A stretch of 64,000 nucleotides of DNA from an uncultured delta proteobacterium (GTDB lineage: Bacteria; Desulfobacterota; Desulfobacteria; Desulfobacterales; SG8-13). Both the position numbers and the translations under genes were made by a program. Under the pieces are notes generated by a model. That model did no database searches. It was not told where the DNA came from and was given only the letters and a program-made list of their open reading frames with translations. This document shows, in pieces, positions 11,508-41,018 of this stretch. Position 1 is the first letter of the stretch, and each line of letters opens with the position of its first letter. The stretch lies in the NCBI GenBank assembly GCA_963848135.1, contig CAWKCK010000003.1, positions 620,001 to 684,000 of the forward strand, read 5' to 3'.

Positions 11508-12470
11508 CTACTCTTTCTGGATTCCGGAATAGATGTTGAAAAAATTGCGCATGATGAACTTCACGGTTTGCTTGTCGACGTGAAAATTCTCTTTGCCATC
11601 GGCGAACCACGTCCGCCCCATGAGCGGCTGGTAGATCGTGGCCATTTCAAAGGCTGGAAAATAAAACACATTTTCGTGGCGGGCAGCGAACTCATCCGCG
11701 ACGGCTCGCAGTGTTGATTTGGAGTTGCAGCTGGCACCAATCACGTCGATATCCTTACGAAAGGTAGCCCAAAGATGTACCGGCGAAACCGTTACCAACA
11801 GGGCGCAGCGGTGATTGTGGGCGGCCATTATGGAATGGATCCGTTCGAGATTGGCCAGGTTATCCTCATATCGGCTCACTCTGAAGCGGTAGCGACTCAT
11901 GTCGCCGCCTTCTGCTACATACGGACCGGATGGCAAACAGATCACCGATCCATCACTGCGGTCCTTCCAGATCTCCGTTAAACCGAGGGTCAGAATCAGC
12001 ACCTCGGCGCCTACCAGGGCGCGTTGCGAGTGATAGCGATGCCGGGTAAAATCCGCCTCAGCCTCTTCCAAATTGTCATAGAGAATTATCCGCCGGTAGG
12101 GATCCTGGATTATATTAGAATCCGGTGCTTGCCACCAACGCAAGTTCGGCTGCCAATCCTCGAAGGTGTACTCGAATATCTGGCGCATGGAAAAGGTGTT
12201 GTAACACCTCTCCCAGGCGGCACTGGCGTGGACGGCCGCCGGGTGATGGGTTTCCTCGGTGATGTAATTGAAACCCTTGGCAATCAATCGCCTGCGGATT
12301 TCGCGCGCGAAGCAGGATCCCATGGAGGCTATGGGCGTTTCGGGAGTAATGGCTAAGCCTGGTTCCGGCGGGAAAAGGTAGGTGCCGTCCGCTACGGGAT
12401 TTTTATAGGATCCCGGCCATACCTGCCAGGGTTCGAATGTATGAACCGGATGGACATCTGAGCGGGCCAT
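11508..12470 (-). CDS. GSCFA-family protein (SGNH-like fold)
   Basis: GSCFA motif, TLGLTE.W, TVSPV, SKSTLR, YFPAFE and a late His. Confidence 0.9.
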   Translation of the reverse strand: MARSDVHPVHTFEPWQVWPGSYKNPVADGTYLFPPEPGLAITPETPIASMGSCFAREIRRRLIAKGFNYITEETHHPAAVHASAAWERCYNTFSMRQIFEYTFEDWQPNLRWWQAPDSNIIQDPYRRIILYDNLEEAEADFTRHRYHSQRALVGAEVLILTLGLTEIWKDRSDGSVICLPSGPYVAEGGDMSRYRFRVSRYEDNLANLERIHSIMAAHNHRCALLVTVSPVHLWATFRKDIDVIGASCNSKSTLRAVADEFAARHENVFYFPAFEMATIYQPLMGRTWFADGKENFHVDKQTVKFIMRNFFNIYSGIQKE

Positions 12471-12649
12471 AGTGAGTGCCTTGTTTGGTGTTTGGTGTTA
12501 AATTTTACGCGAAAAACCTTATTATTATCCGATAATATAAGCATTTGCAAACAGTGCACACCCGATGGTATGAAGTTGCGATTTATTTGACATCAAGCCA
12601 GTATCGGTTTTATTGTTTACTGGTTTCGAACTGCGGCTGTAAACGTTGA

Positions 12650-12758
12650 CCCGCCCAGGCGGGATTTAGGGTTCAAAGTTTAAAGGTTACAAAACGCTGA
12701 TAACCGGACTCCTATACGCTATAGTTTGGATTGGCCGTTTTAAACCATTGGGTGAAAC
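12650..12758 (-). repeat. Partial (3' half) copy D of the ~200-bp dispersed repeat
   Basis: Reverse complement matches 19415-19522 (tttcacccaatgg ... ttgaaccct.aatcccgcctgg). Confidence 0.7.
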
Positions 12759-12946
12759 GGCTTTATAAGAACCATAAACCAGAATCATTTAGACATATGC
12801 AGGTTGCCTTTCACCCCAGAACGTATAATTCCACCTGGGCCGGAAACCGCTCAGCATAGTTTATACTAAACACCAAACACCAAACACCAAAACAAATGCA
12901 ACTCTCTAATCTTTAGATACCGGCGCACCCAGTTTAAGGATTATCA

Positions 12947-14530
12947 ATGAAGATACTATCTCTATATTTCGCCCATGACGCCAACTGCACGTTGCTTGAA
13001 GATGGCGAGCCGGTGGTGGTCATCGAAAAAGAGCGCCTGACCAGGAATAAACACGACCACGGCCCCATCGAACTGGAAACCCTGCTCGAGACCTATGGTT
13101 GGAATCCGGCGTCCATCGATCTCGTGGTTATCAACCCGTATATCGTGCGGGCAGATCGGTTGAAGTTCCAGTGGCAACTGGAGGGCAACACCTATCAGCA
13201 GAACGACAATTACCGCCAAAGCGGCTGGTCCGGACCGGTTGACAACCGTTACAGCCGCCATCGCATCCGTATGTTCGGGCGCCGGTATGACGGTTATGCC
13301 GTGGATCATCACCTGGCACACATCGCCGGTGCGCTGTTTACATCCCCCTTCGATACGGCCGGGATCTTGAGCGCCGATGGTGGCGGTGATCTTCGGATGT
13401 GCGCCCTGGCAGAGGGGAACGGAAATCGGATCAACCACATCGAATACGGCTGGGGCCACGAGGGCAACGGTCGGCAACTCAACATCGGTTCGGTCTGGGC
13501 CTCCGTTGGGGAGCACCATTTCGGTATGAAGCGACTGGAGGGCGCCGGTAAACTCATGGGGCTTGCCAGTTATGGCATCCCGCAGGCCGACCTGATCGCT
13601 CTGCTCAAGGATCAGATGCTTCACCGTCACTATGAACCCCTGTCGCTCAAAAGATTCGGAGTCGAAAACGATGCGACTCTCGATCCGAAAAGTCAATTTT
13701 CCAAAGATCTGTGCGCATCCTTGCAGCAGTTGACCACCGAGCTGTATCTGGCTGCCGCCGCCCGCATAAAAACCTGGCCGCTTCCGGTCAACCGTTTGAT
13801 CATGACCGGCGGCTGCTCGATGAATTGCATTGCCAACACCGCTATTCACCACAGCGGTCTGTTCGACGATACCTGGGTTCCCGCCCAGCCGCATGACGGC
13901 GGATTGAGTTTGGGGCAGGCGCTTTTTGTCTGGCATCACGTGCTTGGTCGGCCGCGAACAGCCAAGGCATGGCCGCCATACCTGGGGACGGATACCGGAC
14001 CCCTTTCTGAAAAATATATTCCTGAAATCATACGTTTTTTAGAGCAGGGCAAGAGTGTCGGTCTCTGTTACGGACGCGCAGAATCCGGTCCCCGGGCGCT
14101 CGGGCACCGCAGCATCCTGCTTGATCCGCGGATCGTCGACGGGAAAGACCGTCTCAACCGGCACGTCAAGCACCGCGAATGGTACCGGCCGTTTGCCCCC
14201 ATGGTGCTTGGTGATTGCGGTGTTCCCAGCAAATACATGTCCTATGTCATCGATCTGGCTGCCGACCGGGTGCCGGCTGTCACCCACGTGGACGGCACCA
14301 GCCGGCCTCAGGTCATCGGCGAAGGTGAGGACCCCTTTATCCGGCAACTGCTGAAAGCCTGGCAGGCGAAGACCGGCTGCCCCATGTTGCTTAACACGTC
14401 TTTCAACTGCCAGGAGCCGCTTGTGGATACCGTCGCGCAGGCGCGGGCCACCTGGCGACGGACGGGTCTCGATGTGCTGGTGTCGCCAGTGGGGATCGAG
14501 ACCGAAAAGTCCGGTATTATTATATTTTAA
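12947..14530 (+). CDS. O-carbamoyltransferase (NodU/CmcH/TobZ family)
   Basis: HD...E.ERLTR.KH, HHLAH, DGGGD, GKLMGLASYG, E.GPRALGHRS, RPFAP, HVDGTSR, LNTSFN. Confidence 0.93.
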   Translation: MKILSLYFAHDANCTLLEDGEPVVVIEKERLTRNKHDHGPIELETLLETYGWNPASIDLVVINPYIVRADRLKFQWQLEGNTYQQNDNYRQSGWSGPVDNRYSRHRIRMFGRRYDGYAVDHHLAHIAGALFTSPFDTAGILSADGGGDLRMCALAEGNGNRINHIEYGWGHEGNGRQLNIGSVWASVGEHHFGMKRLEGAGKLMGLASYGIPQADLIALLKDQMLHRHYEPLSLKRFGVENDATLDPKSQFSKDLCASLQQLTTELYLAAAARIKTWPLPVNRLIMTGGCSMNCIANTAIHHSGLFDDTWVPAQPHDGGLSLGQALFVWHHVLGRPRTAKAWPPYLGTDTGPLSEKYIPEIIRFLEQGKSVGLCYGRAESGPRALGHRSILLDPRIVDGKDRLNRHVKHREWYRPFAPMVLGDCGVPSKYMSYVIDLAADRVPAVTHVDGTSRPQVIGEGEDPFIRQLLKAWQAKTGCPMLLNTSFNCQEPLVDTVAQARATWRRTGLDVLVSPVGIETEKSGIIIF

Positions 14531-14746: not shown

Positions 14747-16033
14747 ATGCCCCGAAACGCCACATACAACATATTGATGTATTCCCACGACACTTATGGC
14801 CTCGGCCATATCCGTCGCACGCTGGCCATTGCCACACAGCTACGGGAAGCCAATATTAATATCCTCATTTTGACCGGCTCACCGATTGTCGGCCGGTTCT
14901 CCTTCCCGGAGCAGATCGATTTCGTGCGGATTCCGGGAATGATCAAAAAAACCAATGAGGAATACCTGCCGCTTTCGATCAAGATCAATGCCAAGCACGC
15001 CCTGGATATCCGTAAAAACATCATAACAGCCACGGCCAAGACATTTCAGCCGCATCTTTTTATTGTCGACAAGGAGCCTTTGGGGCTCAAGAAGGAGGTA
15101 TTACCGACCCTGCAGTGGTTGCGGCGCTGCCAGCCCAACACCCAAACCATTCTGGGGCTGCGGGACATCATGGACGATCGCCAAATTGTTCGGAAAGATT
15201 GGAACAAAAAGGGCATTTACGAAACACTGGATAAACTCTACAGCGAAATATGGGTTTACGGAAACCGGGAGTTTTATGATCCTGCCGTCGAATATGCCAT
15301 CCCCGAGAACGTCAGCCGTAAAATCGTCTACACTGGTTATATCCCCCGCAAGGTGCCGTCTGACAGCCAGACGGTGAAGGCCCGCAAGGAACAGGGCCTA
15401 CCAAACGGTGAAAAGCTCATCGTTGTGACCACCGGTGGCGGCGGTGACGGGTATGTCCTGATGGATGCATACCTGTCTATGCTCGAAAAAGAACCCCGGC
15501 CGATACCTTTTAAATCGGTTTTGATTACCGGACCGTTCATGCCGAAACAGGACCGTAAAAAGGTGGTCAAGCGTGCGCGCAAGCTCGGGTTGAGAACCTA
15601 CCATTTTTACCGCAACATGGAAAAGCTCCTGGCGGCCGCCGATGTCGTTGTCAGCATGGGTGGTTACAATACCATCTGTGAGCTGCTTTCATTAGGGACC
15701 GTATCGTTGATTGTTCCCCGGGAAACACCGCGTAAGGAGCAATTGATCCGTGCCAAAATATTTCACCGCAACAACCTTGTGGAGTATATTCCCTGGCACC
15801 GATGCACCGCCGAGCAAATGCGCGCGAAAGTGCTTTCCCTGTTGGAAAATCCTGCACCATTTAAACAGGCCATTTCTCAATTCAGGATGAACGGCATCAG
15901 CACCATGCAGGAGCGATTGAAAGCATTCAGAGGGCTGGAGCCCCTCAACACGTGCGAGCCGCCCATTAACGTGGAATCCTGCAAACAGGCCAAGGAAGTC
16001 ATGTCGGCCGCATATATGCGCAAAGTAGTATAA
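14747..16033 (+). CDS. GT-B glycosyltransferase (COG4671 / GT28-like)
   Basis: YSHD.YGLGH, LGLRDI.D, TTGGGGDG, SMGGYNT, EQ..RA. Confidence 0.88.
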   Translation: MPRNATYNILMYSHDTYGLGHIRRTLAIATQLREANINILILTGSPIVGRFSFPEQIDFVRIPGMIKKTNEEYLPLSIKINAKHALDIRKNIITATAKTFQPHLFIVDKEPLGLKKEVLPTLQWLRRCQPNTQTILGLRDIMDDRQIVRKDWNKKGIYETLDKLYSEIWVYGNREFYDPAVEYAIPENVSRKIVYTGYIPRKVPSDSQTVKARKEQGLPNGEKLIVVTTGGGGDGYVLMDAYLSMLEKEPRPIPFKSVLITGPFMPKQDRKKVVKRARKLGLRTYHFYRNMEKLLAAADVVVSMGGYNTICELLSLGTVSLIVPRETPRKEQLIRAKIFHRNNLVEYIPWHRCTAEQMRAKVLSLLENPAPFKQAISQFRMNGISTMQERLKAFRGLEPLNTCEPPINVESCKQAKEVMSAAYMRKVV

Positions 16034-16447: not shown

Positions 16448-17704
16448 GTGGCGACAAAGGATACACCGGTACTGGGGATGATTCTGAAAGGATACCCCCG
16501 CATATCAGAAACGTTTATTTCCAACGAGATTTTACTGCTGGAGCACCTGGGCTTTTCCGTCCATATTTTTTCAATGCGCGCCCCCAGGGAAAATTTTACC
16601 CACCAGAATATTGAACAGATCCGGGCGCGGGTGGACTATCTGCCGGAGACGCTTCTGCTGCCCTTGCCCCGGTTTTTTTATCACAACCTCCTGTTGGCCT
16701 TGAAAATCCCGCGCTTATATCTGGAGACATTCAAGACAGCCCTGCGGCGCTTTGGCAGAACTCATCGACCGGCCACCTTCAAACATTTTCTACAGGCCGG
16801 TTACCTCGTTCAGCGCCTGCTGCCTGGCACAGGGGTCTGCCATCTGCACGCCCATTTTGCCCATTCTCCCGCCTCCGTAGCCATGTTTTCTGCACAGCTC
16901 AGCGGCTTGAAATTCAGTTTTACCGCCCATGCCAAGGATATCTACACCTCTAACCAGGAACAGCTGCGTGAAAAGCTGGCGCTGGCGAAATTCGTCGTGA
17001 CCTGCACCGAGTACAATCGCCGGCACCTCATGTCCCTTGCAGACGGTGACAGCGCTCCGATACACCGGGTGTATCACGGCATCGACACCGGCCTTTTTTC
17101 CCAAGCCCCGGGGACTCGATCGCCGGCACCGCCGTACCAACTATTGACCGTTGCCCGCATGACCCCCAAAAAGGGGTTGAAGACCGTCTTTAGGGCTGTC
17201 AAATGGCTTCTCGAAAACGGCTTCGCGGTGCAGCATGCGCTGGTAGGCGATGGTGAGGATCGCGAAAAGATTCTGGCGTATATCAAAGGTCTCGATCTCA
17301 ACAGTGTGGCAAGCTGGCACGGTACCCAGCCGCATCAGGCGGTTCTCGGGTTTTACCGTCGCGCCGATGTGTTCGTGCTGGGGTGCGAGGTGGCCGCCAA
17401 TGGTGACCGCGACGGCATCCCCAACGTATTATTGGAAAGCATGGCCATGGGCGTACCGGTGGTTGCCACAACGGTTTCCGCCATTCCCGAATTGGTGCAG
17501 GATAGCGACACGGGATTGCTGGTGCCGCCGGGGGAACCTGAGAAGCTTGCCGCAGCCATCGTCCGCATCTTGACCGAAGATGATTTACGGGAAAGGATCG
17601 TACGGAAGGCCCGGGAACGGGTGATGCAAGAATTTTACAATCATGACCATATTCAGCGATTGGCAGAGATTTATCGGCGGGAAATACGTGAATTTGGTGT
17701 TTAG
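16448..17704 (+). CDS. GT4 glycosyltransferase (WcaL-like)
   Basis: YP.ISETFI..EI, HAHF, SFTAHAKDIY, KKG, DGIPNVLLESMA.G.PVV. Confidence 0.9.
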   Translation: MATKDTPVLGMILKGYPRISETFISNEILLLEHLGFSVHIFSMRAPRENFTHQNIEQIRARVDYLPETLLLPLPRFFYHNLLLALKIPRLYLETFKTALRRFGRTHRPATFKHFLQAGYLVQRLLPGTGVCHLHAHFAHSPASVAMFSAQLSGLKFSFTAHAKDIYTSNQEQLREKLALAKFVVTCTEYNRRHLMSLADGDSAPIHRVYHGIDTGLFSQAPGTRSPAPPYQLLTVARMTPKKGLKTVFRAVKWLLENGFAVQHALVGDGEDREKILAYIKGLDLNSVASWHGTQPHQAVLGFYRRADVFVLGCEVAANGDRDGIPNVLLESMAMGVPVVATTVSAIPELVQDSDTGLLVPPGEPEKLAAAIVRILTEDDLRERIVRKARERVMQEFYNHDHIQRLAEIYRREIREFGV

Positions 17705-17794: not shown

Positions 17795-18007
17795 AACTTA
17801 AACGGATCGGTTCCAGGTTCAGGGTTCCCGGTTAAAAGGCTATAATATATTGATATATTTAACTTTATGATAAATGGTTTGAATCGACCGCTTTCGCCCA
17901 CCGGGTGAAACATAGAATTCAACCCAATTGATGCGCAATACGATTGTTAGAGACCAGTTATGGCATTTTAACCGGGAACCGTGAACGTTGAACCGCTCAA
18001 CCGAGGT
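17795..18007 (-). repeat. ~200-bp dispersed repeat, copy B
   Basis: Reverse complement aligns with copies A and C. Confidence 0.85.
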
Positions 18008-18064: not shown

Positions 18065-19249
18065 ATGCATTCAGCTCACCAAATACCAAACACCAAACAC
18101 CAAACACTAAATATTCTTTTTTATGCCCCATTTAAACCTCTGGGGCACCGCCACCCTTCCGGCGATCTGGTCATCGGCACCGGCCTGTTTCGGTTCCTCG
18201 AGGCGAAAGGTCACCGGTTGCAGGTGGCCAGCTCGCTGCGGACCCGTTGGATATTCTGGAAACCCTGGTTGCTGCCCCATTTGCTGGTGGAGCGCGGGCG
18301 GCTTCTTCGGCGTTTGCGCCCCGGCGGTTCTGATTTATGGCTGACCTACCACGCCTATTATAAGGGACCAGACCTGTTAGGACCGCATGTTGCCGCCCGC
18401 AAGGGCATCCCCTATGCCATATTCCAAGGTGCATATGCAACAAAATACCGGCGTGACTTACGCACGCTGCCAGGATTCTATTTGAACCGAAGAGCGTTGC
18501 AGGCGGCACGGCATGTCTTCGTCAATAAAAAGGTCGATCTTATCAATCTGAAACGCCTGCTGCCTCCGGAGCGGGTATCCTACGTCGCCCCCGGTATTTG
18601 CCCGGCCGACTTCTGTTTCGATTCTAAACGCCGAACTGAATTGCGATTACAGTGGCATAGCGATGATGGGCCCGTTCTCCTGACAGCGGCGATGCTTCGC
18701 CCCGGTGTCAAGGCGCAAGGGGTGGCGTGGGTCATCCGTGCCTGTGGACGCCTGCTGCGCCGCGGGCATGACTTTAAACTGGTCGTCATCGGCGACGGCG
18801 AAGAGGCGGGCGCTCTCCAACGGTTGGCGGACGTCCAGATTCCCGGTAAATGTCGATTTGTGGGCAAAGCTCCACGGTCAGAGATGTACCATTTTTACAG
18901 CGCTGCCGACCTGTTCGTCTTTCCGGGGATCGCAGAGTCTCTGGGCATGGTGTTTCTTGAAGCCCAGTCCTGCCGTCTTCCGGTTGTCGCGTTTGATAAT
19001 GCCGGCGTGCCTGAGGTCGTGGAAAACGGCAGGACCGGCGTGCTGACACCTTTTAATGAGATGACCCCTTTTGTACGGGCCATAGAAGATTTAATACGAG
19101 AGCCAGGCCGTCGACAAAAAATGGGGCGTGCGGCAGAGGAATATATTCGGCGGAAGCGCGATCTGGCAATGAACTACACCGCTGTTGAAAAGATGTTGAA
19201 AAAGATTGCAACGACCAAGGGCTCGTCGAAAATATTTCACCTAAATTGA
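18065..19249 (+). CDS. GT4 glycosyltransferase
   Basis: FYAPFKP...PSGD, ESLGMVFLEAQ...PVV. The N-terminal residues are encoded by a heptamer tract, so the start is uncertain. Confidence 0.9.
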   Translation: MHSAHQIPNTKHQTLNILFYAPFKPLGHRHPSGDLVIGTGLFRFLEAKGHRLQVASSLRTRWIFWKPWLLPHLLVERGRLLRRLRPGGSDLWLTYHAYYKGPDLLGPHVAARKGIPYAIFQGAYATKYRRDLRTLPGFYLNRRALQAARHVFVNKKVDLINLKRLLPPERVSYVAPGICPADFCFDSKRRTELRLQWHSDDGPVLLTAAMLRPGVKAQGVAWVIRACGRLLRRGHDFKLVVIGDGEEAGALQRLADVQIPGKCRFVGKAPRSEMYHFYSAADLFVFPGIAESLGMVFLEAQSCRLPVVAFDNAGVPEVVENGRTGVLTPFNEMTPFVRAIEDLIREPGRRQKMGRAAEEYIRRKRDLAMNYTAVEKMLKKIATTKGSSKIFHLN

Positions 19250-19322: not shown

Positions 19323-19541
19323 GGTTGAGCGGTTGAACGTTCACGGTTCCCAGCTAAAGTGCCATAACTGGTTTCTAACAATCGTATTTCGGATCAATTG
19401 GTTTGAATTCTATGTTTCACCCAATGGGTGAAAGCGGTCAATCCTAACTATGGAGTGTAAAATTAAATATATCAAAACTTTATAACCTTTGGACCTTGAA
19501 CCCTGAATCCCGCCTGGACGGGAAACCGATCCGTTTAGGTT
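19323..19541 (+). repeat. ~200-bp dispersed repeat, copy C
   Basis: Aligns with copies A, B and D. Confidence 0.85.
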
Positions 19542-19558
19542 GGGCTCCATCAGAGCGA

Positions 19559-22340: not shown

Positions 22341-22395
22341 ATCGTGTTGCCGCTGCGGCAGAAACCCCGCCAACGGAGCCGGGTGAGGAAATTTG

Positions 22396-30730: not shown

Positions 30731-30738
30731 ACGCAAAT

Positions 30739-32724: not shown

Positions 32725-33639
32725 GTGGTCAATCAACCCAAAAAGTCCGCCTCGCCGCAATGGCGTGAAGTCGCCTGGAACGGGGTGCGTTTAGAGGTTC
32801 CGGCGAATTGGGAAATCGGAGAAATCGGCCGGCAGCACCTGTTTTTGGAAACCATCGACGGACCAAAGTTGGAGATAAAATGGGGGCCGGTGAAAGGCAG
32901 ATTTTCACCCCGCGCACAGCTCAAACGGTTGGCTGCTTCCCAAGGGCGAAAACTGCGCAAGGATCTGCACGAGGCGGCATTACCGACCGCCTGGGCGCAG
33001 GTTCTCAGCCGCTTCGAAAGCGTCGGGTTTCTTTGGCGCAGCGGTACTGGCACTATCGGCGGGCGCGGTATCGTGCTCTATTGTCCTGCCTGTCGGCAAG
33101 CGACTCTGCTGCAATTCTACCGGGCCCCGTTTGATCGACCCATTCCTTACGCCACCCGGCTGCTGGCATCCTTTGTGGACCACACCAATCGACCGTTAAC
33201 GACATGGGCGGTCTTCGATGTTCACGTGAAGATACCAACAGAATATGTATTAAAGGCATTTCGTTTCGAAACTGGATTCTACGAGCTTGCCTTCTCAAGC
33301 CGGGCATCGAAGCTCACTCTGCAGCGCTGGAGTCCTGCTGACGTGCTCCTCGGGGATGACGGATTATCGGGATTCGAAAGAAAATACCTGGCCTATTCCA
33401 CGAAGCGTCCCGTCACATTCAAAACACGATCAACGGATATTGTCGAAGTGGAGGACCGTCTACCCAAAGCTATTTTGCAACGTTTAATACGTCATTTGCG
33501 GCGTCAGCCGCTATACATCCGCGAACGATTGTGGCACGAAGCCGACAAGAACCGTATCCTCGGGGTACGGCTGGAAGGAAGGGAGCCCATCGACTCGCAA
33601 CATCTGCATTCGATTTGTACAAGTTATGGGACCATTTAA
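32725..33639 (+). CDS. Hypothetical soluble protein, possibly an internally duplicated PsbP/DcrB-like fold
   Basis: In operon (overlaps the next gene); WNGVRLEVPANWEI and FDVHVKIPTEYVL are similar; one CPAC; no signal peptide. Confidence 0.65.
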   Translation: MVNQPKKSASPQWREVAWNGVRLEVPANWEIGEIGRQHLFLETIDGPKLEIKWGPVKGRFSPRAQLKRLAASQGRKLRKDLHEAALPTAWAQVLSRFESVGFLWRSGTGTIGGRGIVLYCPACRQATLLQFYRAPFDRPIPYATRLLASFVDHTNRPLTTWAVFDVHVKIPTEYVLKAFRFETGFYELAFSSRASKLTLQRWSPADVLLGDDGLSGFERKYLAYSTKRPVTFKTRSTDIVEVEDRLPKAILQRLIRHLRRQPLYIRERLWHEADKNRILGVRLEGREPIDSQHLHSICTSYGTI

Positions 33640-34009
33640 ACGCAAAAAACGGTTAGAGGGGCCGGATCGAAGCGAGGCCCTCGACTGCACTCCCGTAAAA
33701 AATAACCAGATCGAGGAATCCCGCTTGGAGAGCGGGGAGCTGCTTCTGAGTTATCCCATGATCACACGACCATGGTTGGCCGGTCTTTTCAGACGGTTGG
33801 GGGGAAACAGCGAACGGACCGTAGTGAAGAAGCTCCAGTTGGATATTCTCGGAACTGAAGTCTGGGAACTTATTGACGGTGATACCCGGGTCCGTGATGT
33901 CATTCGGCGATTCGCCGGGACACACCGACTGCCTCACAGAGAGGCAGAGGTTGCGGTTACCCGGTTTCTGTGGGATCTGGGGAAGCGGGGTCTCATTGGG
34001 TTGCGTTGA
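33626..34009 (+). CDS. Stand-alone PqqD-family / RiPP recognition element-like protein
   Basis: LD..G..VWELIDG...V.DVI..F.....L...EAE..V..FL..L.KRGLI winged-helix pattern. Confidence 0.82.
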   Translation: MGPFKRKKRLEGPDRSEALDCTPVKNNQIEESRLESGELLLSYPMITRPWLAGLFRRLGGNSERTVVKKLQLDILGTEVWELIDGDTRVRDVIRRFAGTHRLPHREAEVAVTRFLWDLGKRGLIGLR

Positions 34010-34220: not shown

Positions 34221-34553
34221 CTAAACTTTCGATAGTGCGTTTTCCACTGTCGGCACGATTGTCAGAAAGGAATCGAATCCGGCGATTTCAAAGACCTCCT
34301 TGACGTAATCCTGCATCGCGCAAAGGACGATGTTTCCCTCTGTTCTTTTCAGATCTTTGGTCGTTTTCAGAATTATGCGTAGCCCGGCACTGGAAATATA
34401 ATCCAAATTCTCAAAGTCAATGACCACATTTCGTGCACCGCTTTCCATCGCTTCCATTAACCTTTTTTCCAAAGCAGGGGAGGTGTTCGAATCAAGGCGC
34501 CCGTTCAATTTGAAAATATTGATTTCATCTTTTTTCGTTTCGAGTATTTCCAT
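34221..34553 (-). CDS. STAS-domain anti-sigma-factor antagonist (RsbV/SpoIIAA-like)
   Basis: GRLDS, YISSAGLR (phospho-Ser motif), VFEIAGF. Confidence 0.93.
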   Translation of the reverse strand: MEILETKKDEINIFKLNGRLDSNTSPALEKRLMEAMESGARNVVIDFENLDYISSAGLRIILKTTKDLKRTEGNIVLCAMQDYVKEVFEIAGFDSFLTIVPTVENALSKV

Positions 34554-34644: not shown

Positions 34645-35070
34645 TCAGCACTTGGAAACATTTTTAACCAACGTGATGATGTTTTTCTTGCCACAGCGTT
34701 GGTATGTGATTTCATCCATTATTTTTTTTACCAAATGTAAGCCGAGCCCACCAATCTTGCAATCCTCAATTTTTGTTTCCGGAGTCGACATTTGCCGACT
34801 CGCCGGGTCGAAGGGAATACCGCTGTCTTCTAATTTCACACTGATTTTACCGTTGTCATGAGAAAGTGCCACCAAAATCGATTGCCTCCCATTATCCGGA
34901 AATCCATAGCTTACGATATTGGTGAATAACTCGTCCAGTGCCAAATTAATCTGAAAAATACACTTTTTAGACAATCCTATACCTTCTCCGAAGGCATTGA
35001 GTTTGCGACCCAGTTTGTCGAGTTCGGAAATATTGTTTTTAAGTTTGAATGAAAGATTTTTCCTTGCCAT
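34645..35070 (-). CDS. Anti-sigma factor / Ser kinase (RsbW-like HATPase)
   Basis: LDELFTNIVSYG, D.G.PFDP, GGLGLHLV...MD. Confidence 0.92.
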   Translation of the reverse strand: MARKNLSFKLKNNISELDKLGRKLNAFGEGIGLSKKCIFQINLALDELFTNIVSYGFPDNGRQSILVALSHDNGKISVKLEDSGIPFDPASRQMSTPETKIEDCKIGGLGLHLVKKIMDEITYQRCGKKNIITLVKNVSKC

Positions 35071-35189: not shown

Positions 35190-35717
35190 TCAAACAAGAC
35201 TGACGCCGATTTCCCTGTAGCAGTCGATGCATTCCGCCTTTTGGCGGGCGACGAAGCGCTTTTCCCAGTTATAAATGTTGTCGACAATGACTTTGATCAT
35301 TTTCGGCATTACATCCGGGAATTGTGCCAGAGCCTTCGAGAATTTTTCACCGGTAATGGTCAGGCACGCGACGTCTGTGCGGGCTTTTAGTGAAAAGAGG
35401 TGGCGCAAGCTTCCCAACAGAGCCAATCGCCCAATGAATTCGCCGTCGCCATAATCCCGGATCTCCTGCTCGTCACCGTTGTTTGTGAGCAGGAGGCCCG
35501 CACTTCCGGATATAATATAATACGCTTGTTCGTCTTCGTCGCCTTTTTGAAATATATACTCGCCGGTTTTGTAAAATTCTCTGTCGCACAGGTAGGCAAA
35601 CACCTTTGTTGCCTCAAGGGGCAACCCGGAGAAAAAATCGACCTGGCGAAGGAAGCGTAAATTTTCTTGATATTCACTGTCCGTTCCGTCGCTATCTTTT
35701 TCCATATTCGAGTTCAT
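35190..35717 (-). CDS. Stand-alone cyclic-nucleotide-binding domain protein
   Basis: L....FF.GL, GE.IF..GD....AYYIISG, GEFIG.LALL; start overlaps the ABC gene stop. Confidence 0.85.
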   Translation of the reverse strand: MNSNMEKDSDGTDSEYQENLRFLRQVDFFSGLPLEATKVFAYLCDREFYKTGEYIFQKGDEDEQAYYIISGSAGLLLTNNGDEQEIRDYGDGEFIGRLALLGSLRHLFSLKARTDVACLTITGEKFSKALAQFPDVMPKMIKVIVDNIYNWEKRFVARQKAECIDCYREIGVSLV

Positions 35718-38208
35718 ACAGCAAACCTTTCTTGGCAATTAATTCATCGTAAGGTCCCATTTCAGCAATTCTTCCGGCCTTCATTACCGCTACTTGATCA
35801 AAATTTTTAATGATGTCCAAGCGATGAACGACGGAGATCACCGTACTCTTGCCTTTCCATCGGTTTTCAAGCAAATTCTGAATTCGGGTCTGGGAGTTGT
35901 TGTCAAGGGCCGATGTGGCCTCGTCCATAATCAACACTTTTGGATGTTTCAGTAAGGTCCGGGCAATGGCCAGCTTCTGCCGCTGGCCTCCAGAAAGTTT
36001 GTCTCCCTTGCTGCCGACCTCATACTGCATGCCGATTTCGATGACGGTCTCGAGGAAGTCTTCTTCGATCAGCAAGTGGACGATACTCTGGTTGATTTTT
36101 TCCTGGGCCTTCGGGTTGAAGGTTTTCATCTTGCCAAAAAATATGTTGTTCAAAATTGTTTGGGAGTAAATATACTGCGACGATTGATAAAAGGTGAATG
36201 CCGTCGGATCGTCGGTGGTGATATTTTTAGTGAACAGCTCCCGTCCCTCCAAAATGAGGTTTTCCAGGTTATTGGGCAAAGAGACGGTCTTGTGGATACC
36301 CGGGGTGAAGCGCAAAGCCAGATCCAGAAGTTTTGCCCGCTCTTCGTTTTCGAGTTGATGGGGTTCGACTTTTTTGGCGTGATCGACGATTCGCCTGTAG
36401 TCATCCAGTTCATCCGGAGCAATCGGGCTCTGTTCGAAGAACACCGCATCCGGGGGCAGATTGCCCAGAATGTCGACCATCTGGCTTGCCAGGCGAAAAC
36501 CAAGGGCCAGTAACGGTTGTTCCAGCTTCGCATTGTCTAAAAATCGGCTGAAATACCCGTTGTGCGATAAATTGCTGTGGTCGAAATCAGTCCGGTTGGG
36601 CGTGCCGAAGGTGAGGTTTTCCGAAATGCTGGAGAAATAGAGATAGTTTTTTTCATCAAAAAATTCTACGAACTCGGCGAGTTTCTGACCAAATCCGCTA
36701 CGGAAGCTGTCCCTTGTCCGCAGTATTCTTGCAACAAGTTCCCGATCTTGATCTTTAGACAAAATAGTGTTGAGCCCAAAGCGCAGGACATCGACAAAGA
36801 GTCCGGTTTGCTGCAAAACCGCGATGATTTCATCCCGGGTCGGCATCCGGTGGCTGCTGTCTTCGACATTATCGCTGAATTCAGCGGCGCAGCCGTACAG
36901 CAGATTCTCCTGGATCGTGCCGGCAAAGATAAACGGCGCCTGAGAAACAAATCCCACGTTCATGATGATATCTTTTTTAGACAAGTCTGCGACCTCTTTA
37001 TCGTCCAACAGAATATGTCCGGCAGAATAAGGGTAGAGCTGGCCGACACAAAGGGCCAGCGTACTCTTACCGCTGCCGGAAAATCCGACCAAAGCCAAAT
37101 TTTGACCCTGCTTGAGGGTAAAGGAAATGTCGTCCAACAGGTGGATACCGTCTTCGGTGACAAACGAGAGGTTCTGCACATCGATATTTCCCTCAAATGT
37201 GTAAGGCTCCCGATTGCTTGGTTCTATTTGGTGGTCCGCTTCGTGATCGAAATATTCCATGGTGCGGTAGTACTGTACCTTGGCGTCCTGATACACCTGG
37301 TACATTGCGATTAATTCCTTCCAGGGTGTGTACAGTTTTTCCTGCGCTGAGAGAAAGGCCACCAAGGCACCGAGTTCCAACTGGCCCTGCATGGCCAGAT
37401 AACCGCCGAGCAGGAAGACCAGAAAGGGGCTCAGATTCGAAAAAAAATTATTAAGAAGTTTTATTCCCTGAGTATAAAGGGTCCATAAGATCCTGATATC
37501 TTGCAGTTTGTCTACCAGTTGGGCGAATTTTCCATTTTCGATCCGGTAAGCCCCGTTGCTGTGTATCTCGTGGATCCCGGTGACAGATTCGGCGATTTTA
37601 CCGGCCATCACCCGGGAAGCATCCACACGACGTTTGTTTTGCAGATTGGCCCGTTTCTGAAGCCGGGGCAGAAGGATCATCACCACCGGATAGATGCTGA
37701 GAGAAACACCGGCCAACAAGGGGTTTAACCAGAACAGGTATCCGGCAAAGGCCAGCAGGGTCAGGATATTGGTAACGGGCACCGACACCGCCATACCGAT
37801 GAAGTTACCAGGGGTGGTCAGCTCGGTGGTCAGGGTCGATACCACCAGGCCCGGTTGGGTTTTGCGGAAAAATCCGAGAGGCAGCGTCAGGATGTGGCGA
37901 TAGAGTTCTTTTCGCATGGCGGCCGTGGCGCGCTGGCCAATGAGTGTCTGAATGTAATTGATCCAATACTTCAATGCCCCTTGTAAAATAACAGCGGCCA
38001 AATAGATGCCACAGTAAATCAGCAGCAGGTCAACCTTCCGCAAAGAGATCGCTTCGTTGACGACCCGTTTCTGCATTTCCAGGGGGATGACGCGGCTGAC
38101 GACCGTGATCAGAATAATGAAAATCAGGAAGATCTGAAGCTTGAGGTTGGTCGTTATAACCCATGACCCCAATTTCCTTTTAACGACCGAAGTTTGTTTG
38201 GTTTTCAT
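35692..38208 (-). CDS. ABC exporter (TMD-NBD fusion) with a large insertion inside the NBD
   Basis: N-terminal TMD; GFSGSGKST; Q-loop VSQ; LSGGQRQ, DEATSALD and HRL roughly 300 aa downstream. Confidence 0.9.
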   Translation of the reverse strand: MKTKQTSVVKRKLGSWVITTNLKLQIFLIFIILITVVSRVIPLEMQKRVVNEAISLRKVDLLLIYCGIYLAAVILQGALKYWINYIQTLIGQRATAAMRKELYRHILTLPLGFFRKTQPGLVVSTLTTELTTPGNFIGMAVSVPVTNILTLLAFAGYLFWLNPLLAGVSLSIYPVVMILLPRLQKRANLQNKRRVDASRVMAGKIAESVTGIHEIHSNGAYRIENGKFAQLVDKLQDIRILWTLYTQGIKLLNNFFSNLSPFLVFLLGGYLAMQGQLELGALVAFLSAQEKLYTPWKELIAMYQVYQDAKVQYYRTMEYFDHEADHQIEPSNREPYTFEGNIDVQNLSFVTEDGIHLLDDISFTLKQGQNLALVGFSGSGKSTLALCVGQLYPYSAGHILLDDKEVADLSKKDIIMNVGFVSQAPFIFAGTIQENLLYGCAAEFSDNVEDSSHRMPTRDEIIAVLQQTGLFVDVLRFGLNTILSKDQDRELVARILRTRDSFRSGFGQKLAEFVEFFDEKNYLYFSSISENLTFGTPNRTDFDHSNLSHNGYFSRFLDNAKLEQPLLALGFRLASQMVDILGNLPPDAVFFEQSPIAPDELDDYRRIVDHAKKVEPHQLENEERAKLLDLALRFTPGIHKTVSLPNNLENLILEGRELFTKNITTDDPTAFTFYQSSQYIYSQTILNNIFFGKMKTFNPKAQEKINQSIVHLLIEEDFLETVIEIGMQYEVGSKGDKLSGGQRQKLAIARTLLKHPKVLIMDEATSALDNNSQTRIQNLLENRWKGKSTVISVVHRLDIIKNFDQVAVMKAGRIAEMGPYDELIAKKGLLYELEYGKR

Positions 38209-38488: not shown

Positions 38489-38544
38489 TCAATCGTGCCA
38501 TCACCACATACGTGGACGGACACTAGCCTAAGCATTAATATAGG

Positions 38545-39534
38545 ATGAATCAATTTGACAAGCACAAAACCGGTTTCCCAACTTTGACAAAATTCAATCG
38601 AGAGGATAGTTTGAACACGATGAATGTAGCGAACGAACCACAATCCAGCGATCCGATCGCCATCGCACCGCCAGAGAACGTGCAAATACAAACGGTCGCG
38701 GGATGCAATGGCGGATGTGTTTTTTGCCCGAATGGAAAAACGCGGTTAAAGATACCCTTCGGGCGCCGCATGGATGGGAAAATGTTTCGTTCGGTTGCTG
38801 ACCAATGCCTTGAGCTTGGCATTCGGCGATATACGCTCTACTTGATGAACGAACCTCTGCTGGACCGTCACCTCCCCGAGAGGATTGCCTATATCAGCGC
38901 CCGAATACAAAAACCTCAGTTAACGAAGATTACCACCAATGGTGGGCTGCTGTCAGGTAAAATGGCGAGGGGCTTGCTTGATTCCGGTCTCGACAAACTG
39001 AAAATATCGGTTCAAAGTATCGATCCCGAAACGTACCGGCGCATCATGAATCTCCCCCTGGAAAGGACGTTAAGCAATATCGACAGGTTCGTGGAGCTCA
39101 AGGAGAAGGGTGGCTATAAAAGGCCCCGACTGCAAATCGTCACGGTCGATTCCATCCAAACCCGTGATGAACTTCCCGCGATTCGTCGATATTGGGAAAA
39201 ACGGAAAATCAAACTTCACATTGAACCGGTTGAAAACAGGATTGATCACCATGAGATTCGTGATGCTGCCATCGGCGCTGACAAACTTATCCCTTTTACA
39301 TGGTGCCGGCGATTGCTGGAGCAAATCTTCGTTCTTTACGACGGCCGAATGATCTTGTGTTGTTCGGATTGGGAACAAGAAAGCGTCATGGGGGATCTTG
39401 CCAATGAGCGTATGTCTGATATATGGCAAAGCGCACGGTATGCAGACTACCGCCGTCGGTTTGTCGCTGGTGATATCGAGGGTATGATCTGTTACGGTTG
39501 CCGCAAGCAGGTTCCGGTCAAATCCACAGTTTAA
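38545..39534 (+). CDS. Radical SAM enzyme with a twitch/short SPASM domain (true start may be 38611 or 38620)
   Basis: CNGGCVFC; NEPLLD; TTNG; C-terminal C..x..DG...CC.DW...GD....IW...C..C. Confidence 0.9.
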   Translation: MNQFDKHKTGFPTLTKFNREDSLNTMNVANEPQSSDPIAIAPPENVQIQTVAGCNGGCVFCPNGKTRLKIPFGRRMDGKMFRSVADQCLELGIRRYTLYLMNEPLLDRHLPERIAYISARIQKPQLTKITTNGGLLSGKMARGLLDSGLDKLKISVQSIDPETYRRIMNLPLERTLSNIDRFVELKEKGGYKRPRLQIVTVDSIQTRDELPAIRRYWEKRKIKLHIEPVENRIDHHEIRDAAIGADKLIPFTWCRRLLEQIFVLYDGRMILCCSDWEQESVMGDLANERMSDIWQSARYADYRRRFVAGDIEGMICYGCRKQVPVKSTV

Positions 39535-39557
39535 ATTACCGGTCGTTAAGAAGTTGT

Positions 39558-41018
39558 TCAAAGGAGCTTCGCAACCACAAGGGTGATGTCGTCCTCCTGA
39601 AGAGACGAACCTCTGAAGGCTCCTAATTCCTCTAATATGGCCGTTTGAAGTGAAACGGCCTTTTCCATGTGATGCCGACCGATGATTTCCTGCAATCGTT
39701 CGCGGCCGAACATCTCTCCCTCTTTGTTTCGGGTTTCATGGATACCATCGGTGCCAATAACAACGACGCTTCCGGGTTTCCAAAGGTGGCAGCTGGTGGA
39801 CTGAAATCGATAGTCGCTGTCGACTCCCAGCACGATTCCCTCGCCGGAGAGTAGCTGAAATTCATTCGACTCCGGTTCGTAAAGAATCGCCGGTTCATGT
39901 CCCGCCCGCACCCAGCGAAGGGTCTTGCGCTGGGGATCGATTTCCAGCAGGAACAGGGATACAAATCGACCCGTCTGCAAACTGTCCCGAACAAGATGGC
40001 CGTTGATGTCGTCGATGAGAGCTGAAATATCATCAGCCTTTTGGGAACCGTATAGTAGAAAAGCCCTGGCTGTTGCCATTTGGAGTGCGGCACTGACCCC
40101 GTGATCGGCAGCATCGGCGACGACGATACCTAATCGATCGCCCGGCAACTTGAGATAGTCATAATAATCACCGCCGGTTTCATCGCAGTAAATGCTTATC
40201 CCGGAGATGTCCAGGCCGGGAATCTTGGGTGCGTGGTTCGGCAAGAGATTGCGCTGCACCTCTTCGGCCAGTTTAAGCGCAGAAATCATACGGATTCGGT
40301 CCCGAAGACCGTTTATCATGGCGTTGGTGTGGGCGGCGATGAGGCCGAATTCGTCGTTGGTGGCCACCGGCACAAAGCCTGACAAATCCCCGCGGCTTAC
40401 CCCCTCAAGAACGCTGGTTTCATTTTGAAACAGGATTTTTAAATTTTTGGAGTAGGAGACAATCAGGTTGATGACCATGGTCAGCAAGATGGCCATGATG
40501 AAAAATATTTCATAGGATACGGAAAGTTGGGCATCGATTAGGGCGGATTCAGATTGTTCGATTTTCGAAAGCCAGACAATGTCACGAGAAATAACCAGAA
40601 CAATGACCCCTGTCACAAAAAGAGCGGTCGATATGGCCACCAGAAAAAATTTGCGGGTAACCGGAAAAAGACGGTCTCTAAGCGGTAGGCTGCGCTCGGT
40701 TTTCAGGGCCGTCAGTATATTTCGCCTTTCCCGATCCAGCGCCATATCGATGCCAATGAAGAATCCGACCACAAGGCAACCAAAGAGTAGGCTCAATGCG
40801 CTGACCGCTGGAAAATCAAACATGAGTGTGTTGACGATGGCACCGATCATACCGGCCAACAGGCAGAGCGATACGTCCAGAATGATTTGTCGTTTCGGCT
40901 GGTCAGAAACCGGTGCTTGCCGAACAATAATCTTCTCCAGAGGCAGCCTGAGAAACGCCACGGTGGTGAACGCCCCAAATATGATGGCCCCCAGGATCAC
41001 GGGGGGCAGCGTCTCCAT
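39558..41018 (-). CDS. Membrane-bound HAMP + SpoIIE/PP2C phosphatase (RsbU-like)
   Basis: Several TMs, DEFG..A...N.M (HAMP), GGDYYD, AD..DHG, AGH, TDG..E, DDITL. Confidence 0.92.
   Translation of the reverse strand: METLPPVILGAIIFGAFTTVAFLRLPLEKIIVRQAPVSDQPKRQIILDVSLCLLAGMIGAIVNTLMFDFPAVSALSLLFGCLVVGFFIGIDMALDRERRNILTALKTERSLPLRDRLFPVTRKFFLVAISTALFVTGVIVLVISRDIVWLSKIEQSESALIDAQLSVSYEIFFIMAILLTMVINLIVSYSKNLKILFQNETSVLEGVSRGDLSGFVPVATNDEFGLIAAHTNAMINGLRDRIRMISALKLAEEVQRNLLPNHAPKIPGLDISGISIYCDETGGDYYDYLKLPGDRLGIVVADAADHGVSAALQMATARAFLLYGSQKADDISALIDDINGHLVRDSLQTGRFVSLFLLEIDPQRKTLRWVRAGHEPAILYEPESNEFQLLSGEGIVLGVDSDYRFQSTSCHLWKPGSVVVIGTDGIHETRNKEGEMFGRERLQEIIGRHHMEKAVSLQTAILEELGAFRGSSLQEDDITLVVAKLL

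Follow-up and report, generated by a model that had tools for sequence, protein, structure and literature searches.

Glycosyltransferases, a cNMP-partnered ABC exporter and an ancient ABC-OPT core: a co-inherited locus of the Desulfobacterota

The DNA analysed here (the window) is a stretch of 64,000 nucleotides from an uncultured delta proteobacterium of the Desulfobacterota (GenBank assembly GCA_963848135.1, contig CAWKCK010000003.1, positions 620,001 to 684,000 of the forward strand). The part between 14.7 and 38.2 kb of the window would encode one co-inherited system with three modules of different age. These are a block of glycosyltransferases (GTs), a core that joins an FtsX-type ATP-binding cassette (ABC) machine to two OPT-like membrane proteins (the ABC-OPT core), and an ABC exporter with a partner that binds cyclic nucleoside monophosphates (cNMP). 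We are highly confident that the three blocks form one system, because U653, GT28b, GT4a and an insert of the exporter share one pattern of presence and absence and because the partners stay adjacent through rearrangements across several classes.

Nothing relevant to the ABC-OPT core was found in print, and no papers were found on DUF6785 or DUF6784, the Pfam domains of one of its membrane proteins; the system is one without a characterised counterpart. New here is the strict coupling of the core to glycosyltransferases and to the cNMP-partnered exporter. The locus gives a first handle on what the widespread core may act on, and the strictly co-inherited set of glycosyltransferases, together with the peculiar nucleotide-sensing exporter, turns an orphan machine into a testable pathway.

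Genes of three blocks occur in the same genomes

For the phyletic profile, 301 genomes of the phylum were drawn evenly in a single sample; all are at least 90% complete. The thresholds were set before the results: E ≤ 1e-50 for the OPT-like protein U653, E ≤ 1e-10 for the insert in the nucleotide-binding domain (NBD) of the exporter ABC838, E ≤ 1e-30 for the glycosyltransferase GT28b and E ≤ 1e-70 for the glycosyltransferase GT4a. U653 was matched in 19 genomes from 12 families (G000, G024, G069, G082, G106, G118, G149, G178, G180, G192, G210, G238, G240, G267, G289, G291, G314, G336 and G337). The exporter insert, GT28b and GT4a were each found in the same 19 genomes, and none of the four gave a match in the other 282. 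In many of the positives the four genes are not neighbours and lie on different contigs. In genome G337, contig C3 carries U653, C2 the exporter and C16 GT4a; in G118 the four are spread over C25 (U653), C11 (exporter), C31 (GT4a) and C26 (GT28b). In family f42, one of the six genomes was positive, and all four genes occurred together in that one. GIANT, the large permease of the core, was present in all five positives in which it was not adjacent to U653 or which had not previously been examined.

The gene for a GSCFA protein at the left edge of the region served as the control. It occurred in 15 of the 301 genomes, three of which were among the 19 positives. An earlier note on this DNA had proposed a super-locus starting at this gene; its glycosyltransferase, FtsX/OPT and ABC exporter blocks hold as one system, but GSCFA is unrelated to it. 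The note had also named blocks unlinked in related genomes as the sign of chance adjacency. The blocks were found to be linked, both by presence in the same genomes and as neighbours through rearrangements, and chance adjacency is excluded for practical purposes.

Gene order in relatives of the window

Gene order was examined in the loci of 18 relatives besides the window. The run FtsX-ATPase-GIANT-DUF6785-U653-U304-PqqD, facing STAS-RsbW-cNMP-ABC838, was intact wherever the contig was long enough, in 13 genomes, and a 14th was cut at STAS. The GT block lies upstream of the FtsX-to-PqqD run in the relatives' loci. In relatives from the window's order the housekeeping genes gatB and queA/tgt were also syntenic, so that gene order in those relatives alone could reflect vertical inheritance.

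A wider survey found 562 stretches of species genomes that encode a U653 relative, and 80 species-genome loci with U653. Only loci with enough flank were scored for each gene. Beside U653, the core genes were found at high rates (DUF6785 in 66 of 68 loci, GIANT in 49/52, the ATPase in 46/49 and FtsX in 41/46), followed by the two small putative binders (U304 in 48/63 and the PqqD-like gene in 46/61) and the exporter operon (ABC838 in 27/44, cNMP in 27/50, RsbW in 30/55 and STAS in 31/57). GT28b stood beside FtsX in 14 of 36 loci with 10-kb flanks, a count not used as a rate because the upstream DNA was too short; L060 and L110, for example, had been scored as lacking GT28b beside FtsX, and extension of both loci revealed the GT block. 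When loci from five genomes of other classes were extended upstream, GT4a-GT4b-phosphatase-GT28b lay directly before the core in all five. GT28a was adjacent in two of these genomes, elsewhere in two and without an ortholog in one.

The partners also stay together in rearranged neighbourhoods. In Desulfobulbaceae-type loci and in G238, U653 is followed on a single strand by ABC838-like-cNMP-(X)-U304-PqqD, where X is the exported protein described below. In G192 the order is ABC838-cNMP-X-U304-PqqD, with the exporter operon on another contig than the core. G024 has X-U304-PqqD facing STAS-RsbW-cNMP-ABC838, away from the core and on a different contig. In G069 the PqqD-like gene precedes FtsX and U304 follows U653.

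Three layers of different age

Phylogenetic profiling, which had been suggested for telling core from accessory genes, separated a multi-phylum core, phylum additions and lineage accessories. About 1000 representative clusters match U653 at E ≤ 0.001. Outside the phylum its relatives are at most 51% identical, and the records include Lentisphaerae, Poribacteria and Bathyarchaeia (33%). An alignment of out-of-phylum U653 relatives was used to survey other phyla and found 80 metagenome loci. The recurrent order there is GIANT-U653-U304-PqqD-FtsX-ATPase, sometimes with DUF6785, at a U653 identity of 40-50%. GIANT ends at most 600 bp before U653 in 40 of 56 of these loci, and U304 starts at most 600 bp after it in 21/53; the sensitivity of tblastn is limited at 20-30% identity.

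Of the other-phyla loci, 22 reached at least 6 kb upstream and 4 kb downstream. STAS, RsbW, cNMP, ABC838 and PP2C were matched in none of these, and weak GT matches occurred only in single loci. From this distribution we conclude that the ABC-OPT core and the two small cytoplasmic proteins that go with it are ancient and multi-phylum, and that the glycosyltransferase set and the exporter-cNMP pair are additions made in Desulfobacterota. STAS/RsbW, PP2C, radical SAM, histidine phosphatase and carbamoyltransferase are lineage accessories.

In 13 loci of other phyla, the genes around the core showed no GT or peptide theme. What recurred there did so sporadically: SBP_bac_1 together with a rhomboid protein, pseudopilin-like proteins with DUF1559, a GHMP kinase and an S49 peptidase. 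In one of these phyla, two loci (L168 and L171) have a sugar-type SBP_bac_1 gene just before the GIANT gene. A rhomboid-TPR protein gene also lies directly upstream of GIANT in loci of that phylum, and in loci of Planctomycete type U653 is followed by DUF1559/N-methyl pseudopilin-like genes or by a GHMP kinase gene; these observations come from L168:2856-5404, L171:415-3165 and L155:767-2044.

GIANT, the short FtsX protein and the ATPase

GIANT begins with a single N-terminal helix, followed by an ectodomain of ~890 aa and four further helices; next come the MacB-like periplasmic domain and the FtsX module, and ~200 aa of tail complete the protein. Pfam assigned MacB_PCD to aa 1150-1230 (E 5e-7) and FtsX to aa 1355-1465 (E 4.3e-12), with a partial Peptidase_M28 match (E 1.3e-5). 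The best solved matches of the FtsX-type module are MacB chains (E 7e-7). The partner FtsX protein, with 232 aa, is too short for a periplasmic core domain. The LolD and MacB matches of the ATPase in NCBIfam are at family level, below the equivalog cut-offs, and the protein is 65-74% identical in other phyla.

The ectodomain (aa 45-940) was modelled from an alignment of 20 sequences, with a pLDDT of 89 and a pTM of 0.88. Foldseek matched the model to PA+M28 aminopeptidases, the transferrin receptor and glutamate carboxypeptidase II (GCPII) at E 8e-19 to 1e-13; single matches were 2ek8 (E 8e-19), 6hc6 (E 5e-17) and 8acg (E 7.5e-17). In the model the PA/M28 fold is broken by a coiled coil of ~150 aa, and a beta-sandwich follows. 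The metal site of M28 peptidases consists of His, Asp, Glu, Asp/Glu and His ligands with a catalytic Glu. At the corresponding places of GIANT we take the expected two-zinc motifs to be HxD, a bridging D, EE and H. The 20 orthologs, which were inspected with no reference aligned, have AFYD/AYYD, GADE/GAE, AGH and WGTPxD/VDTPxD instead. By these residues the peptidase metal site appears to be lost. Most likely the ectodomain serves for binding, like its counterpart in the transferrin receptor.

The membrane module of GIANT (aa 872-1502; 26078-27970) was observed to match the PADLOC CARF_LolE_TM models at E 7e-55, far better than MacB. One PADLOC LolE_TM model that matches this module comes with a beta-galactosidase-like domain (E 2e-19). 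GIANT-type membrane modules seem to be combined elsewhere with other sensor or ectodomain types. A defence system was considered for the locus and rejected. PADLOC gave only the GIANT membrane module, generic ABC ATPases, a weak pVip (viperin) match for the radical SAM protein (E 8e-6) and cNMP-domain matches, and among the locus genes it found no CARF domain, cyclase or CRISPR parts.

The OPT-like membrane proteins and the small cytoplasmic proteins

A single 'OPT' gene had been named in the earlier note. An OPT-like gene is present, but there are really two, one encoding the DUF6785/DUF6784 protein and one encoding U653. U653 matched no Pfam family at E ≤ 5, including OPT (PF03169), and the 690-aa protein matched DUF6785 and DUF6784 only. 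Against solved chains, U653 gave only chance-level matches as a single sequence and none by profile at E ≤ 1. Its neighbours in a language-model atlas (score 0.98) are 'peptide transporter' clusters in which 15-33% of the members carry PF03169, and sources name the protein itself 'peptide transporter'; in the DUF6785/6784 clusters of the atlas PF03169 is found in 11-19%. A direct BLASTP of U653 against the DUF6785 protein was not significant. When the two families were aligned with hhalign, the probability was 77% and E 2e-5, and the alignment included an ERLPFP/ERMNFP motif. Judged from these profiles, the two proteins are distantly related.

U653 is the slowest-evolving gene of the locus. 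In the 80 genome loci it is 81-98% identical across the phylum, compared with 47-65% for its locus neighbours, and it also exceeds the flanking housekeeping genes gatB (69-87%) and tgt (58-78%). Where the protein is 82-86% identical, third codon positions are only 40-51% identical, near saturation. This contrast points to strong purifying selection and not to recent transfer.

In most other Desulfobacterota an exported protein of ~205 aa with a 'GDPFHVVIAWKWSF' motif (protein X) is encoded between U653 and U304 (e.g. L054:12087-12704). In the window's genome its gene has moved to another contig (C17:1393391-1393993).

The gene of U304 follows U653 in other phyla too. The predicted model of U304 (19 sequences) had a pLDDT of 88 and a pTM of 0.84. 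VIA-align matched residues 11-153 to PsbP (Z 11.7) and residues 156-304 to Mog1 (Z 11.1). The model also matched the type VI secretion chaperone SciW, the immunity proteins Tsi3 and TplEi and the C-terminal domain of MucB/RseB. On this model U304 is predicted to consist of tandem PsbP/Mog1-like domains, a binder fold and not an enzyme fold. The PqqD-like gene overlaps the U304 gene by 14 nt, and the pair is kept in other phyla. The PqqD-like protein scores 28.8 bits in Pfam, against a cut-off of 23.4, and weakly matches a lasso-peptide PqqD chaperone.

An array of heptamers, the longest of the locus, precedes U653 in the window. Of 97 distinct Desulfobacterota loci, 21 had a period-7 array upstream of U653; the corresponding counts were 0-1 at periods 4-6 and 8-10 and 10 at period 14, the double of 7, and shuffled sequences gave 0. 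The arrays are sometimes inverted pairs and could form a hairpin. Further heptamer arrays lie in spacers of the window (12482-12499, 12868-12891, 17808-17833, 17970-17995 and 18077-18111); genome-wide there are only 14 perfect heptamer arrays of at least 3 copies. The array before U653 may be a leader element.

The exporter and the partner switch

ABC838 carries an insert of ~225 aa in its NBD (aa ~455-685; window 36154-36846 (-)), in the segment that links the Q-loop region to the signature motif. All orthologs keep this insert, which belongs to no Pfam family and provides a clean marker of the system. The best NCBIfam match of ABC838 is MsbA (E 6.6e-92, below cut-off). Further matches below cut-off were to a glucan model (NF010178, E 3.7e-65) and to the HepA family (E 2e-78). 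ABC838 matches bacteriocin and NHLM exporters too. The cNMP gene overlaps the end of the ABC838 gene by 47 nt and follows 53 of 60 ABC838-type genes in the loci, with some genomes counted twice. Its product weakly matches a 'bacteriocin-type transport-associated' model (E 9e-5). A second ABC838-type exporter was observed at G000:C3:907662-908345; its insert is 43% identical, and no cNMP gene follows it.

A signalling switch had been proposed as part of the locus. RsbW and STAS do stand beside the exporter in some lineages, but the arrangement is not general. They are missing next to the exporter in families f67, f103, f115 and f66, and full-length MASE10-PP2C orthologs were found in only 3 of the 301 genomes (G000, G180 and G024); in several members of the genus this gene is lost or a remnant. 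There is also a weak match to MlaB (E 1.7e-4). No sigma factor family was found among the 53 open reading frames (ORFs) scanned across the window, and the rest of the genome was not searched for a target.

The glycosyltransferase block

None of the five proteins of the block (GT28a, GT4a, GT4b, the phosphatase and GT28b) has a predicted membrane helix. GT28a is usually the first gene of the block and is adjacent to it in the window's order, Desulfarculia and Syntrophaceae; it lies elsewhere in G042 and G043, and G045 has no ortholog. The best solved relatives of GT4b are PimB' (E 1.7e-15), then BshA- and MshA-type chains. GT4b is optional: in G178 and G238 nothing matched it in the place between GT4a and the phosphatase. 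In several relatives the histidine phosphatase gene is close-set or overlapping with GT4b. GT28b stands beside FtsX even when no other glycosyltransferases are nearby (G337 and G267), and an atlas search with it returned only its own phylum-specific GT28_C clusters.

Two neighbours of the block had been given a larger part in the earlier note than the relatives' loci support. A carbamoylated product does not hold as a general feature: the carbamoyltransferase gene was found in the window and in only 2 of the 18 relatives' loci (G003 and G006), and it is a lineage-specific insertion ahead of the GT block. Its match to the NodU model reached 136 bits, with a cut-off of 1000. Nor is the radical SAM gene a fixed part. 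It occurs in 8 of the 18 relatives' loci, in one of them (G029) at a different place and on the other strand, and the radical SAM/SPASM protein is a variable neighbour whose membership of the system is doubtful.

Inventory of the locus and its surroundings

The features are collected in Table 1. All genes named in the earlier note were found where it had placed them, as ORFs with Pfam and NCBIfam matches. A Pfam family was assigned to 18 of the 21 ORFs of the region, which is flanked by gatB (8678-10153 (-)) and queA/tgt (42022-44266). The four genes ABC838-cNMP-RsbW-STAS form an operon on the minus strand that converges on the plus-strand genes. As the note had held, the families that mark a standard capsule or lipopolysaccharide locus (Wzx/Wzy/Wzz or a priming GT) were absent among the 53 ORFs scanned across the window, and so were nonribosomal peptide synthetase and polyketide synthase families. 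No Rfam family was found anywhere in the window. Promoter-like sites numbered 26, against a mean of 14.8 in shuffles, are inseparable from consensus noise and were not used; neither were terminator-like sites, whose number was as expected.

Table 1. Features of the region and its left neighbours (positions in the window)
Feature	Position	Strand	Basis and remarks
Two tandem paralogous small lipoproteins	10321-10791 and 10987-11610	(-)	lipobox-like LLAAC/LTTAC
GSCFA protein	11508-12470	(-)	left edge of region; served as control, outside the system
NodU-like carbamoyltransferase	12947-14530	(+)	Pfam Carbam_trans_N/C
GT28a, GT-B glycosyltransferase with GT28 C-terminal domain	14747-16033	(+)	Pfam Glyco_tran_28_C, E 5e-15
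GT4a, family-4 glycosyltransferase	16448-17704	(+)	Pfam Glycos_transf_1, E 5e-32
GT4b, family-4 glycosyltransferase, MshA/BshA/PimB-like	18065-19249	(+)	Pfam and NCBIfam
Histidine phosphatase, branch 1	19496-20203	(+)	Pfam His_Phos_1, E 1.5e-47
GT28b, GT-B enzyme, GT28-C-like	20216-21391	(+)	Pfam; directly upstream of the FtsX gene
Short FtsX-type permease, 232 aa	21642-22340	(+)	Pfam FtsX, E 1.4e-15
LolD/MacB-type ABC ATPase	22393-23133	(+)	NCBIfam LolD E 2.6e-67, MacB E 1.6e-63
GIANT, 1668 aa, M28-like/MacB_PCD/FtsX	23465-28471	(+)	Pfam
DUF6785+DUF6784 polytopic membrane protein, 690 aa	28468-30540	(+)	Pfam, E 3.7e-160 and 1.7e-36
Heptamer array, ~16 units ACCCGTA/ACTCGCA/ACCCGCA	30619-30732	(+)	Tandem Repeats Finder and sequence; ends 6 nt before the U653 start codon
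U653, OPT-like polytopic membrane protein, 653 aa	30739-32700	(+)	no Pfam family
U304, 304-aa predicted cytoplasmic protein without family, before the PqqD-like gene	32725-33639	(+)	model
PqqD-like small protein (of the RiPP recognition element (RRE) type)	33626-34009	(+)	Pfam PqqD, E 1.6e-6
STAS anti-sigma-antagonist-type protein	34221-34553	(-)	Pfam STAS, E 9e-23; last gene of the exporter operon
RsbW-like serine kinase/anti-sigma-type protein	34645-35070	(-)	Pfam HATPase_c_2, E 4.4e-26
cNMP-binding protein	35190-35738	(-)	Pfam cNMP_binding, E 8.7e-18
ABC838, 838-aa half-size ABC exporter (MsbA/bacteriocin/glucan-exporter-like)	35692-38208	(-)	Pfam and NCBIfam
Radical SAM/SPASM protein	38545-39534	(+)	Pfam
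MASE10-PP2C phosphatase	39558-41018	(-)	Pfam SpoIIE E 2e-41, MASE10 E 2e-25

The two small lipoproteins at the left of the region (156 aa, and ~150 aa counted from an internal Met) have no family. Homologs were seen next to GT28a in two Desulfobulbia genomes (L130 and L132); in L111 and L245 they come right behind the exporter operon. The tandem lipoproteins may be further parts of the system.

Elsewhere in the window, an ordinary polyhydroxyalkanoate set occupies 46428-56666 (a PhaE/PhaC class III synthase, a GAF protein, a PhaR-type regulator, a MaoC dehydratase, a thiolase and a reductase). A PIN-domain protein (7794-8207 (-)) adjoins gatB and is probably a toxin-antitoxin remnant or pair. 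Several long overlapping ORFs on both strands at 6036-7707 have no family; one of them has weak FG-GAP repeat matches.

Proposed mechanism and alternatives

Starting from the gene content, folds, co-inheritance and neighbourhoods described above, we infer a product, transport directions, protein contacts and a role for the switch. The cytoplasmic glycosyltransferase set (GT28a, GT4a, GT4b with the phosphatase, and GT28b) would build a small glycoside or glycoconjugate. In the window's lineage, synthesis would probably start on a phosphorylated acceptor, followed by dephosphorylation, and only in the closest relatives of the window would the carbamoyltransferase decorate the product. ABC838, with its translationally coupled cNMP partner, would move the product across the inner membrane under nucleotide control. 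In the window's lineage the RsbW/STAS switch, fed by the MASE10-PP2C phosphatase, may act as a post-translational gate on the exporter. In the core, the short FtsX protein, GIANT and the LolD-type ATPase would form a heteromeric type VII 'mechanotransmission' ABC complex. The ABC-OPT machine may handle the exported molecule on the outer face, where the GIANT ectodomain would most likely capture it. ATP-driven movement would hand the molecule, or a loaded or processed form of it, to the DUF6785/6784 protein and U653 for return to the cytoplasm, and there U304 and the PqqD-like protein could act as its binders.

We put this whole chain, in which a glycoside made by the GT block is exported and then captured and returned by the ABC-OPT machine, forward tentatively as a plausible reading. 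Hints of uptake are the OPT-like U653 and the SBP_bac_1 genes upstream of GIANT in two loci of another phylum. A particular form, the secreted shuttle, is rather improbable. Here the cNMP-gated exporter would release a glycoside that binds a scarce resource, for example a trace metal in sulfidic sediment, the transferrin-receptor-like ectodomain would catch the loaded form, and the OPT permeases would return it to the cytoplasmic binders. If true, this would give a type VII ABC system its first role in import, and ATP-assisted uptake of a chelate or shuttle would form a new class.

Several points weigh against the export-and-return chain. Membership of U653 in the OPT family is unsupported by its sequence, with neither a Pfam hit nor a solved relative by profile. 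There is no sugar-nucleotide synthesis gene in the locus. The core occurs in other phyla without these glycosyltransferases or the exporter, and its cargo need not be the product of the GT block. The 19 positive genomes are kin, and the independent gains and losses are fewer than 19. Among deep-branching system-positive Desulfobacterota genomes, the U304 profile was not found in four of five, and the histidine phosphatase, at E ≤ 1e-15, was not found in any of five from families f103, f67 and f54, so that the receiver and phospho-primer steps cannot be universal. The directions are assumed from family habit, in which OPT proteins import and MsbA-type half transporters export. Finally, characterised type VII ABC systems act by expulsion, extraction or activation; those of Escherichia coli serve cell division, lipoprotein trafficking, efflux and lipid extraction, and none is presented as an importer in the portion of the published account drawn on here (PMC12646458).

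An outward route for an envelope glycolipid or membrane-anchored glycoconjugate is on the unlikely side but deserves attention. GT-B enzymes would glycosylate a lipid at the inner leaflet, ABC838 would flip the product in the manner of MsbA, the type VII complex would take it out of the outer leaflet and hand it on as LolCDE and YbbAP do, and the OPT-like proteins would be scaffolds or channels, not importers. The co-inheritance data fit this route as well as they fit export and return. MsbA is the best, though below-cut-off, NCBIfam match of ABC838, and enzymes of the GT28 and GT4 types include lipid glycosyltransferases, among them the GT4b relative PimB', which acts on phosphatidylinositol mannoside. 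The small lipoproteins and the exported protein X accompany the system, and the known type VII ABC systems covered in that portion of the same account extract or expel their substrates from the membrane or periplasm (PMC12646458). Yet the locus has no lipid-carrier or acyl-transfer gene, outer-membrane channel or membrane-fusion protein. The glycolipid route also leaves two OPT-like permeases, including the most constrained gene, without a clear role and the cytoplasmic binders U304 and PqqD-like unexplained.

A glycopeptide or ribosomally synthesised and post-translationally modified peptide (RiPP) is very improbable as the product. In this case the PqqD-like RRE would bind a peptide, which the radical SAM protein, glycosyltransferases and carbamoyltransferase would modify, ABC838 would export, and the OPT permeases would help to sense or re-import. 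The idea draws on the PqqD-like protein, which passes its Pfam cut-off and weakly matches a lasso-peptide chaperone, on the SPASM radical SAM gene in the locus, on the matches of the exporter and its cNMP partner to bacteriocin-type models (with NHLM for the exporter), on the aminopeptidase fold of the GIANT ectodomain and on the name 'peptide transporter' given to U653. However, when 74 small non-genic ORFs between 10 and 42 kb were searched by tblastn against three sets of related loci, no convincing conserved precursor was found; the widely conserved small ORFs were the repeat array or overlapped conserved genes. The radical SAM gene occurs in only 8 of the 18 relatives' loci, the peptidase metal site appears lost, and the constant partner of the PqqD-like protein is U304, with its predicted binder fold. 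Both small proteins belong to the ancient core that occurs without the glycosyltransferases and exporter, and U304 itself was not detected by profile in most of the deep positives.

The earlier note had also remarked that pairs of a GT and a phosphatase recall compatible-solute synthesis. It is highly improbable that a GT4 enzyme and the phosphatase make a glycoside osmolyte with the transport and signalling genes nearby by chance. The resemblance of GT4b to MshA/BshA-type enzymes acting on small acceptors and its close-set or overlapping position with the phosphatase gene in several relatives speak for it. But the phosphatase was not found in five of five deep positives, GT4b is unmatched at its usual place in two genomes, and the strictly co-inherited glycosyltransferases are GT4a and GT28b, which track the exporter and envelope machine; the idea fits poorly with this strict coupling. 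Chance adjacency kept by vertical synteny between gatB and queA/tgt, with which the synteny of these flanks in the window's order, the convergent exporter operon that is not co-transcribed with the core and the core standing alone in other phyla would agree, can be dismissed, as across the 301 genomes four genes drawn from the three blocks are present or absent together even when unlinked, the neighbouring GSCFA gene is off the pattern, and rearranged neighbourhoods keep the partners together.

Comparison with known systems

The machine at the centre of the proposed export-and-return system resembles the type VII ABC systems MacAB-TolC, LolCDE-LolA, FtsEX-EnvC and YbbAP-TesA in its FtsX modules, its MacB-like periplasmic core domain and its LolD/MacB-type ATPase. 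As in LolCDE, there are two different FtsX proteins and one ATPase gene. Another shared trait is a large extracytoplasmic part suited to mechanotransmission, as the class is described in the portion of the account used (PMC12646458). In contrast to these systems, the permease of the locus is fused to an ectodomain of ~890 aa with a predicted PA/M28 fold, coiled-coil insert and beta-sandwich, and its partner FtsX protein has no periplasmic domain. The locus pairs the ABC machine with two OPT-like permeases and, in the phylum, with glycosyltransferases and a second ABC exporter, and it has no counterpart of TolC, a membrane-fusion protein, LolA or EnvC.

The OPT and Yellow-Stripe-like transporters (PF03169) are class 2.A.67 of the Transporter Classification. 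U653 and the DUF6785 protein are like them in being polytopic and ~650-690 aa long, with an ERLPFP-type motif common to the two. They differ in that U653 has no Pfam OPT hit, is always paired with an ABC machine and is conserved far beyond its neighbours. With the transferrin receptor and GCPII, GIANT shares the modelled PA+M28 fold of its ectodomain (Foldseek E 1e-16 to 1e-14), and as in the transferrin receptor the metal-ligand positions, compared with the motifs we presume, appear not to be kept. Unlike these proteins GIANT is bacterial, its domain is fused to an FtsX permease, and the predicted fold is interrupted by ~150 aa of coiled coil.

Soluble glycosyltransferases beside an ABC exporter also recall the glycan export systems of cyclic glucan (NdvA/ChvA), of Nod factors (NodIJ with NodU) and of heterocyst glycolipids (DevBCA/HepA). 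The ATPase of the locus matches DevA at E 4.5e-60, below cut-off, and the window's lineage has a NodU-like carbamoyltransferase. The likeness does not extend to Cgs, NodC/NodA/NodB or polyketide-type glycolipid genes, and all matches are far below the curated cut-offs; for the Nod-factor pathway, scans of the window revealed no chitin-synthase-type GT2, deacetylase or NodA. The locus adds the ABC-OPT machine, the cNMP partner and the NBD insert.

All three types of protein known from RsbV/RsbW/RsbU partner switching, STAS, an RsbW-like kinase and PP2C, are present, with STAS and RsbW in the exporter operon. The locus departs from that scheme in that the module accompanies the exporter only in some lineages and in that the PP2C protein is rare and has a MASE10 membrane domain. 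A precedent for a STAS protein acting on an ABC transporter is MlaB, which acts on MlaFEDB. In the window the partner switch goes with the operon of a transporter and not with a sigma factor, and the system as proposed would extend the known roles of type VII ABC transporters and OPT-like proteins.

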